DNA from: an uncultured Parachlamydiaceae bacterium
GTDB taxonomy: Bacteria > Chlamydiota > Chlamydiia > Chlamydiales > Parachlamydiaceae
Assembly: GCA_963752155.1 (NCBI GenBank)
Contig: CAVVXH010000001.1
Location: 55,404 to 119,403 of the forward strand
DNA length: 64,000 nt
Direction of reading: 5' to 3'
The notes below the pieces were generated by a model. It saw only the letters and a program-made list of their open reading frames with translations, was not told where the DNA came from and searched no databases. The stretch's first letter is position 1. The number at the start of each line of letters is the position of its first letter. Of this stretch, positions 56,529-57,926 are shown in pieces. Both the position numbers and the translations under genes were made by a program.

Positions 56529-57926
56529 TTAACATCCACCCTTATGCCAGCCTACCACTACGCTATAGGACCTACCATTTTCCCTCTCCTCATAATCTTC
56601 CTGAGAAATATATTTATTTTTCCCAAATTTATTGAACAATTCTTTTTGAGACATTCCAACCGGAACAAGATAATGTCCCACTACGGGTTTTTGCGAGGAG
56701 TTCTCAGTCACTGTATCTCTGATAAAAGTAACAAAGTAGGCATTTTTTCTTTCGGAAAAACGTATGAGCCATCTTCCAATTGGATCGTTGTCGTACCGAT
56801 TGAATTTTATTAATTTAGTTCCGGCGTTTATACTATCTAAATTATCAAATGTAAAAATTTTATCATTCAATTCCCAATCTTTAGTTAGATGTTGGTTGAT
56901 ATTATCTGAGGAACTTAATTCAAATCTAAAATAATCACCGTCAAGAATAGTCAAATTTGGAAAAATTTCTTTAATTTGATCAAAAGATACATGAATTTTA
57001 GTTTCGCATACATTTAAATGTTTAATTTTTTCTAAACATTTAAGTTGCTTTAATCCTTCGAATGTAATTTTTGCATTATAAGAAAGATCAAGGTGTTCTA
57101 AATTTGATAATTCTTTTAATCCATTAAGATCTATGTCTGTTAAGTCACAAAAATCTAAACTAAGTTCTTTTAATTTGTTTAATGTGCTAATTTGTTTCTT
57201 GATATTTTCTGGAATATCAGAACAGTTAGTTAAGTTGATAGATTCGCAGCATAGGGGAAGTTTAATTTTTTCAATCTTTTCTCTTGGAAAGCATGCAAGG
57301 TTCAAATTTATTAGATTTAAATTTTCGAGACTTTTATCAAGAGCTTTTCCATTTATTAAGAAGCTATATTCCCTATATCTGTGGCATAAAGGAGCCTCAT
57401 CGAGAGCGAATGAATTAGGAATAATTCTTTCAATGAAAAAATTTTTCCTGTCTTCATTAAATGCTTCTAAACGTGCCCAATCTTCAATGGTTGTTTTTTT
57501 TTCAATTAATTTGAAATATATTAGTGAAATTGTGTTGGCAAGCTCAGGCACAGAATTAAATTTAACCAAAATTGGATTCATATCTCTTTTATTAAGAACT
57601 TTTATAAGACCATCGATCTTCAAAATAATATTGTTTACTTTCCGTTCTAAATTTTCTATTTTCCCGTAAGTTTCAATAGTATAAGTTTTTAGTGTAGTGA
57701 GTGCTTGGCTAAAATTCATCCTTTCTGTTGCGTTGTTAAAAAGAACATCAATATATCTAAGAGAGCCGTTTGAATAAGGATCAACAAATTGAGAAATCAA
57801 TTGTTTTTTGATGATGATTTCAGTTTGTGCAAATAAATCAAAGGCATCGCCAGTTCTCATAATTTTTCTCATTTCTATATCTGAAGCAATACAGGAATTT
57901 ATACTATTAGATATACTGCAACTCAT
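56529..57926 (-). CDS. LRR protein with C-terminal SH2-like domain, candidate effector
   Basis: LRRs (LKELSLDFC, LEHLDLSYN, IKHLNVCET); C-terminal GRWLIRFSE-AYFVTF-VGHYLV. Confidence 0.75.
   Translation of the reverse strand: MSCSISNSINSCIASDIEMRKIMRTGDAFDLFAQTEIIIKKQLISQFVDPYSNGSLRYIDVLFNNATERMNFSQALTTLKTYTIETYGKIENLERKVNNIILKIDGLIKVLNKRDMNPILVKFNSVPELANTISLIYFKLIEKKTTIEDWARLEAFNEDRKNFFIERIIPNSFALDEAPLCHRYREYSFLINGKALDKSLENLNLINLNLACFPREKIEKIKLPLCCESINLTNCSDIPENIKKQISTLNKLKELSLDFCDLTDIDLNGLKELSNLEHLDLSYNAKITFEGLKQLKCLEKIKHLNVCETKIHVSFDQIKEIFPNLTILDGDYFRFELSSSDNINQHLTKDWELNDKIFTFDNLDSINAGTKLIKFNRYDNDPIGRWLIRFSERKNAYFVTFIRDTVTENSSQKPVVGHYLVPVGMSQKELFNKFGKNKYISQEDYEERENGRSYSVVVGWHKGGC

Follow-up and report, generated by a model that had tools for sequence, protein, structure and literature searches.

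We analysed a stretch of 64,000 nucleotides (the window) from an uncultured Parachlamydiaceae bacterium and focus here on one of its open reading frames (ORFs), at positions 56529..57926 of the minus strand, whose predicted 465-residue product (P0001, hereafter the candidate) carries leucine-rich repeats (LRRs) followed by a C-terminal region that resembles an SH2 domain. Our analysis makes it likely that this C-terminus is a genuine, very divergent SH2-type domain. An initial annotation of the same DNA had read the protein as an LRR-SH2 fusion; of that reading, our results bear out the LRRs, a C-terminal placement of the domain, the betaB arginine, the betaD histidine, the alphaB-like motif and the replaced alphaA arginine. 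The curated cut-off for membership in the Pfam SH2 family is not reached, and the stretch with statistical support covers only about 25 residues. The sequence strings that it quoted (FTFDNLDSINAGTKL, GRWLIRFSERKNAYFVTFIR, VGHYLV and SQKELFNKF) are all found in the ORF translation, and the span of about 56620-56860 that it gave to the SH2-like part corresponds to core residues 357-434 (56625-56858). The ORF and the parts of its C-terminal region are as follows:

56529..57926, minus strand: whole ORF, 465 aa plus stop, ATG start (P0001)
56625..56858, minus strand: SH2-like core, residues 357-434, delimited from profile matches, alignment and conditioned model; its elements are betaA IFTF 357-360, alphaA 365-376, betaB GRWLIRFSE 384-392, betaC 396-404, a long CD loop 405-414, betaD VVGHYLV 415-421 and alphaB SQKELFNKF 426-434
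56715..56792, minus strand: sole statistically supported stretch, residues about 379-404 (NDPIGRWLIRFSERKNAYFVTFIRD), to which the Pfam SH2 model, two lineage profiles, hhalign and SOCS1 all align
56760..56762, minus strand: codon of Arg389, candidate phosphotyrosine-binding betaB5 arginine, in an invariant alignment column
56673..56675, minus strand: codon of His418, the betaD His of HYxV, 29 residues after Arg389
56532..56624, minus strand: C-terminal tail, residues 435-465, of low predicted confidence, with Tyr439, Tyr445 (in the acidic QEDYEE) and Tyr454

Evidence for an SH2-type domain at the C-terminus

A lineage SH2 profile was built iteratively from ORFs at 20 loci (27 domains, 57 positions, the candidate excluded) and searched against a six-frame translation of the genome that encodes the candidate, whose 17,187 ORFs of 50 aa or longer served as decoys. 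The profile ranked the candidate first of all 17,187 (E 0.0033, 16.9 bits), aligning to residues 380-404 (NDPIGRWLIRFSERK-NAYFVTFIRD). A second implementation, a 96-position model made from alignment A2 (26 rows, candidate left out), matched the candidate locus and nothing else in the genome (E 0.0056, 18.3 bits). Comparison of the lineage profile with the candidate by hhalign gave a probability of 88.2% (P 3e-06, 27 columns), and none of 20,000 shuffled versions of the 133-residue C-terminal piece scored above 10.5 bits, compared with 18.6 bits for the real piece. We also searched a mixed database of the 17,187 decoys and 26 true lineage SH2 domains with the candidate as query: the non-self matches ranked 2, 3, 7, 17, 21, 22 and 23 were SH2 domains, a share of 7 in the top 22 non-self matches for about 0.03 expected, and the best of them had an E-value of 0.0046 with 44% identity over 25 residues (BLASTP). 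The Pfam SH2 search that had been proposed as a check gave a divided answer. Searched in six frames over the whole 3.13 Mb, the model (PF00017) finds a single match at E<=10. This is the candidate locus (residues about 381-420, window positions 56667-56786; E 0.435); the match spans positions 19-50 of the 77 in the profile and takes in the betaD His, yet its score lies below the cut-off. Judged from these sequence comparisons, the SH2-like motif exceeds chance at genome scale, but only modestly.

In an unsupervised MAFFT alignment of the candidate with 26 lineage SH2 domains (A1, 27 rows), R389 stands in the only invariant column and H418 is placed in the lineage betaD His column, the offset between them (29) lying within the lineage SH2 range of 20-32. 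R389 sits within an FLVRES-like string, WLIRFSE, whose form we take to resemble that of STAT proteins. The betaB arginine singled out by the initial annotation is R389 and is conserved, and its betaD histidine, H418, and alphaB-like motif are likewise supported. In canonical SH2 domains the equivalents of Arg389, Ser391 and His418 contact the phosphate and the ring; the candidate retains all three. While the bare betaB pattern occurs in 51/17,186 decoys and in 11/26 true SH2 domains, the betaB motif combined with the betaD His is found in the candidate, in 5/26 true SH2 domains and in 0/17,186 decoys, and addition of the alphaB motif leaves the candidate alone (0/26 true SH2 domains). These composite patterns were drawn from the general SH2 consensus after sight of the sequence and are, for that reason, supportive only. 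The candidate lacks the betaE and betaF strands, and its betaD leads directly to the alphaB-like helix, as in the tandem SH2 proteins L012 and L013.

For structure prediction, alignment A1 was supplied to AlphaFold2 with the candidate as top row and the 26 lineage SH2 domains beneath. The resulting model had a mean predicted local distance difference test score (pLDDT) of 69.6 and a predicted template modelling score of 0.62, with pLDDT values of 77-87 over residues 21-90 of the piece, and its elements followed the order betaA, alphaA, betaB, betaC, betaD, alphaB, then another helix. When the model was compared with 48,161 chains using VIA-align, 50/50 of the listed matches were SH2-bearing. 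SHP2, SHP-1, PLC-gamma, RasGAP, Spt6 and SOCS1 (the last at Z 6.8) were tied within one Z unit, so that no SH2 subclass can be assigned. The SOCS1 SH2 domain is also the top match of the 133-residue C-terminus among PDB sequences, at a non-significant E-value of 0.37. Foldseek matches listed for the same model were SH2 entries by title (best E 5.4e-03). Mild added support comes from the SQKELFNKF helix, which arises where the rows of A1 scarcely align with one another.

Relatives of the domain were sought at several scales. An exhaustive search of 1.84 billion representatives with the C-terminus recovered the query and one other protein, P0003 (discussed below); a word-indexed search of 5.8 billion clustered proteins recovered the query alone among 24 candidates; and a whole-protein homology search recovered only the query and an LRR kinase, P0002. 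The genome holds no paralogue of the C-terminus, and in 41 relatives' genomes the whole protein was matched in its LRR part alone (within residues 164-341). No orthologue of the C-terminus turned up at E<=1 in 400 genomes of the phylum: the best intact ORFs at this threshold were, by eye, a fucosyltransferase-like protein, an arginyl-tRNA synthetase and Rhs/YD-like giants, none of them matched by the lineage profile, and 2/54 rows fell within SH2 proteins of genome G362.

Several observations weigh against an SH2 identity. The Pfam gathering threshold is missed (12.4 bits for a required 21), and hmmscan of the 133-residue piece reports nothing at E<=10. The sequence tests are not independent of one another, as all of them draw on a single betaB-betaC stretch some 25 residues long, and the alphaA region is left unmatched by every profile. 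The runner-up to the candidate in the lineage profile search is a 53-aa ORF (E 0.046, 13 bits) whose frame lies antisense to a real ATPase gene and which is therefore a true chance match. Since the searches above recovered no homologue of the domain, conservation provides no evidence. The alphaA Arg is missing, as the initial annotation had suggested, with S365 filling that column of A1. On the structural side, AlphaFold2 run on the whole protein as a single sequence gave an unusable model (mean pLDDT 37.7). Because the rows of A1 are SH2 domains, the conditioned model is circular and indicates that the sequence is compatible with the fold rather than that it adopts it. The best VIA-align match listed has a Z of 7.3 (root-mean-square deviation 2.9 over 79 residues), which is middling by that program's own scale, and Foldseek against the PDB gave no match at E<=0.001, with template modelling scores of 0.3-0.45. 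As to the suggested check by AlphaFold and Foldseek, the central sheet and two helices are seen in the SH2-conditioned model, with the circularity just described, and the single-sequence model provides nothing usable.

The leading alternative is that the resemblance arose by chance. On this view the C-terminal 125 residues form an orphan domain with a different fold, or are in part disordered, and include an FLVRxS-like strand by coincidence, which would make the candidate just another fast-evolving LRR protein. We regard this as possible, if on the unlikely side. It would account for a match confined to about 25 residues and short of the Pfam cut-off, and for the absence of homologues in which conservation could be seen and of any usable match in the ESM Atlas (residues 340-465); an antisense junk ORF obtains 13 bits from the same profile, and the bare betaB pattern recurs among the decoys. 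It fits poorly with genome-wide E-values of 0.003-0.006 in two implementations and with the excess of SH2 domains among the top pairwise matches. Chance would also have to supply a betaD His and an alphaB motif at the right spacing, a composite found in no decoy, at the C-terminus of a eukaryote-like modular protein and in a lineage where SH2 domains are common.

A second alternative accepts a true SH2 fold and denies its usual role: the domain would no longer read phosphotyrosine, being structural or otherwise specific (Spt6-type) or degenerate, or the gene would be a decaying recent import without a role. We consider this unlikely: Arg389, Ser391 and His418 are kept, and the frame is intact over 465 codons. 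The missing alphaA Arg and the long CD loop would be expected under such a reading, and the extreme orphan sequence and foreign composition would suit either form of it. However, by our reading of A1 the alphaA Arg is retained in just 8/26 lineage SH2 domains; it is therefore not a defining residue in this lineage, and its loss is ordinary. Precedent for an altered pocket exists in STATb, which has Leu at the conserved Arg position according to the paper on Dictyostelium LrrB (PMC2906285).

Finally, an Ig-like (He_PIG) beta-sandwich akin to the repeats of P0003, a 1573-aa RTX adhesin with five near-identical He_PIG repeats, is highly improbable: its E-value of 7.9e-07 over 5 stretches is the sum of five repeats' scores, for which reason we rejected P0003 as a relative, a single repeat reaching 22.3 bits and E 0.02 in one pairwise comparison, which is meaningless at database scale, and Pfam He_PIG is unmatched in the candidate at E<=10. 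As a side observation, summing over repeats gave this protein a spuriously low E-value against an orphan query although each single repeat was at noise level.

The LRR region and the N-terminal part

Upstream of the SH2-type domain that we favour, the protein is divided as follows:

56922..57356, minus strand: LRR region, residues about 191-335, roughly 5-6 units, with Pfam and ANP32B matches
56928-56954, minus strand: LRR-cap-like LTILDGDYF, residues 325-333, closing the LRR region
57357..57926, minus strand: N-terminal region, residues 1-190, helical in a low-confidence single-sequence model and without family

The LRRs reported in the initial annotation are real. Pfam LRR_8 matches residues 251-306 above its cut-off (29.4 bits for a cut-off of 27), LRR_4 (26.0 for 27) and LRR_6 (22.6 for 23.4) fall below theirs, and LRR_14, spanning residues 194-331, lies just under its own. 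The nearest solved sequences are ANP32B and ANP32A, the former with the best E-value (5.9e-07), and the ANP32 alignments extend into the cap-like LTILDG at residues 325-330. No Pfam family matches residues 1-190 or the final 133 residues at E<=10, and the ESM Atlas gave no usable match for residues 1-195. The first 15 residues include 6 Ser and no charged residue, a composition suggestive of a type III secretion signal.

A second LRR protein is encoded in the window at 18956-19630 on the minus strand (224 aa) and is 35% identical to the LRR part of the candidate. Its gene is adjoined by a 507-aa ORF (19780-21303, minus strand) that by eye resembles a TnpB/IS605-OrfB-type transposase.

SH2 domains in the phylum and comparison with known proteins

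We surveyed 400 scored genomes of the phylum (one further genome was unscorable) together with 14 control genomes. Pfam SH2 was detected in 74/400 genomes at E<=0.1 and above the cut-off in 30/400, with 0/14 controls, and the lineage SH2 profile matches 18/60 other genomes of the candidate's family. The statement in the initial annotation that bacterial SH2 domains are rare does not hold for this phylum, given these frequencies, although the literature that we searched reports them only from Legionella. Chlamydial SH2 domains are typically part of multi-domain, effector-style proteins: a Pfam scan of 23 chlamydial SH2 ORFs showed SH2 alongside F-box, Peptidase_C80, DnaJ, ankyrin, tyrosine phosphatase or protein kinase, and within the candidate's own family SH2 is fused to tyrosine phosphatases and a protein kinase. 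LRRs accompany SH2 in 0/23 of the scanned ORFs. SH2 loci in relatives are numbered L011-L030 and L053-L068, and include:

L011: F-box plus SH2
L012: two SH2 plus Peptidase_C80
L013: three SH2, then a CX5R phosphatase-like end (motif read by eye)
L015: SH2 plus DnaJ
L016, L066, L067: tyrosine phosphatase plus SH2
L017: ankyrin plus SH2
L065: SH2 plus protein kinase

In addition, many genomes of the phylum carry a small stand-alone SH2 family of about 116-150 aa with the consensus AWHGN..AE.LL...TYLLR.GE (L021, L022, L026, L028, L029, L056-L058, L060 and L061), with three tandem copies at one locus (G145:C58). L066 (G022:C4) is a tyrosine phosphatase by Pfam (96.2 bits) whose residues about 501-584 match the lineage SH2 profile (E 1.6e-07); Pfam SH2 is unreported for this C-terminal domain at E<=0.01. 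Pfam therefore misses some chlamydial SH2 domains.

The candidate resembles the other chlamydial SH2 proteins in that its domain lies at or near the C-terminus of a modular eukaryote-like protein, from the same phylum and in part from the same family. The betaB motif is shared as well (TWLLRFSE where the candidate reads RWLIRFSE), as is the short form in which betaD leads directly to alphaB; examples are the tandem SH2 proteins L012 (G140) and L013 (G362). Unlike the candidate, however, the chlamydial SH2 domains pass the Pfam cut-off (22-54 bits), and they share with it 9-23% identity in alignment A1.

Among described bacterial proteins, the Legionella SH2 proteins LeSH, LUSH, RavO and DoSH come, like the candidate, from intracellular bacteria of amoebae (Kaneko et al., 2018; PMC6208348). 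According to that article, the Legionella SH2 domains are divergent from eukaryotic ones, are fused to other eukaryote-like modules and keep the phosphotyrosine pocket; they belong to a different phylum and to effectors of type IV secretion, and are likened to the candidate here by description rather than by sequence or structure. No Legionella domain is among the 50 VIA-align matches listed, an absence that carries no weight. The words 'chlamydia', 'LRR' and 'leucine-rich' appear nowhere in the text of that article. The one described protein that combines SH2 with LRRs, as the candidate probably does, is Dictyostelium LrrB, which is read as an adaptor, dependent on the SH2 Arg, and was called unique in 2010 (PMC2906285). 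The order is reversed there, with SH2 near the N-terminus and the LRRs central, compared with LRR then SH2-like in the candidate; LrrB is moreover eukaryotic, with LRRs of ribonuclease-inhibitor type and a 14-3-3 site, whereas the candidate LRRs best match the ANP32 type. The expanded effector families NEX1 and PEX1 of Parachlamydiaceae (Domman et al., 2014; PMC4209131) likewise consist of LRR proteins from environmental chlamydiae; that paper describes them as undergoing rapid birth-and-death evolution, with type III secretion signals in the members tested. By that description they are set apart by an N-terminal F-box, RING or BTB and C-terminal LRRs, those of the candidate being central and followed by the SH2-like piece; 'SH2' occurs 0 times in its text. 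A chlamydial pangenome paper is likewise silent on SH2 domains in chlamydiae, and we found no literature on them in open full text, a search outside which subscription journals and domain databases lay. Public domain databases may already list chlamydial SH2 proteins.

Origin of the gene, delivery and proposed role

The candidate frame is unbroken across all 465 codons and, judged from stop-codon frequency, an open frame of this length at 30% G+C cannot be accidental. An AGGA is situated 8-9 nt 5' of its ATG. Only 24 nt separate its stop from the start of truA, so co-transcription of the two genes is likely. Around the gene we found no enrichment of sigma-70-like promoters (14 sites for 10.7 expected) or of terminator-like sites (2 for 1.5 expected). 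Two further features describe the locus:

56505..58365, no strand: 1.86-kb segment between truA and the gene of a 156-aa membrane protein, in whose place two same-genus genomes have about 27-93 bp
58066..58365, no strand: nested palindromic repeat just upstream of the gene, made of inverted repeats and multi-copy in the genome

Neither same-genus genome (G001 or G002) has the insertion: truA lies directly beside the counterpart of the gene for the 156-aa membrane protein, at a distance of about 27 bp in one genome and 93 bp in the other. Beyond these two genes, G001 shares with the window the succession rpe, efp and accB. The 1.86 kb found here at this position consists of the ORF and 439 bp of non-coding DNA, of which the distal 300 bp (58066-58365) comprise the nested palindromes, inverted repeats I2, I4, I5 and I7. 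The palindromes are perfect or near-perfect (arms 58114-58149/58197-58223 and 58240-58283/58311-58353), and the element is repeated genome-wide, with 698 blastn-short high-scoring segment pairs. The ORF has a G+C content of 29.8% and of 23.6% at third codon positions, compared with 38.4% for the genome and 32-40% at third positions in neighbouring genes. In the outgroups G005, G010 and G019, the 12-kb stretches compared yielded truA alone; because distant relatives lose gene order, the polarity (gain here or loss in both other genomes) rests on composition and orphan status. On these grounds we read the gene as a recent, AT-rich acquisition specific to this genome.

The chlamydial identity of the source bacterium that the initial annotation had supposed is borne out by a gene for Hc1, the chlamydial histone-like protein (69.3 bits). 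Outside the window, the genome also carries an FHIPEP (SctV/FlhA-type) export-gate gene at G000:C10:589757-591652 (650.8 bits) with one in-frame TGA; the FHIPEP family is not specific to injectisomes. The TGA may be a sequencing error, a pseudogene mutation or a recoding event. Together with the Ser-rich, uncharged N-terminus and the functional type III signals reported for Parachlamydiaceae LRR families (PMC4209131), this gene makes delivery into a host plausible. As for targets, the repertoire reported for Acanthamoeba comprises 22 tyrosine kinases, 12 phosphatases and 48 SH2 proteins (PMC4053784), and amoebae would on this account offer phosphotyrosine to bind.

We therefore envisage the candidate, by way of proposal, as a protein of modular, eukaryote-like build through which an environmental (amoeba-type) chlamydia interacts with its host, with a probably helical N-terminal part, a central LRR module for protein binding with an ANP32-type cap, and a putative divergent SH2-type domain of short form. 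It would be delivered into the host cell, probably through a type III system; its SH2-like domain would dock on host phosphotyrosine via Arg389, Ser391 and His418; the LRRs would hold a second host protein; and the outcome would be an adaptor or decoy within host phosphotyrosine signalling. More speculatively, Tyr445 in the acidic tail (QEDYEE) might become phosphorylated and then be bound by the SH2-like domain in trans.

The most ambitious version of this proposal seems to us rather unlikely as a whole: that the candidate is the first bacterial LRR-then-SH2 adaptor, binding host phosphotyrosine via Arg389, with Tyr445 perhaps phosphorylated by the host and STAT-like SH2-to-tail self-association, and that it belongs to a chlamydial phosphotyrosine toolkit not described before. 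Among the genomes that we searched, other members of such a toolkit would be SH2 readers joined to tyrosine phosphatases, a protein kinase, F-box, ankyrin, DnaJ and a C80 protease. More simply, and so far as its probable SH2 identity holds, the candidate is a putative bacterial effector that pairs SH2 with a new partner domain and comes from a phylum new to the SH2 literature. If it is a working SH2 domain, an amoeba symbiont outside Legionella reads host phosphotyrosine signals; the LRR-then-SH2 architecture would, if true, be unlike that of the 23 other scanned chlamydial SH2 proteins. The phylum-wide SH2 repertoire (30/400 genomes) may outweigh the candidate itself in importance.

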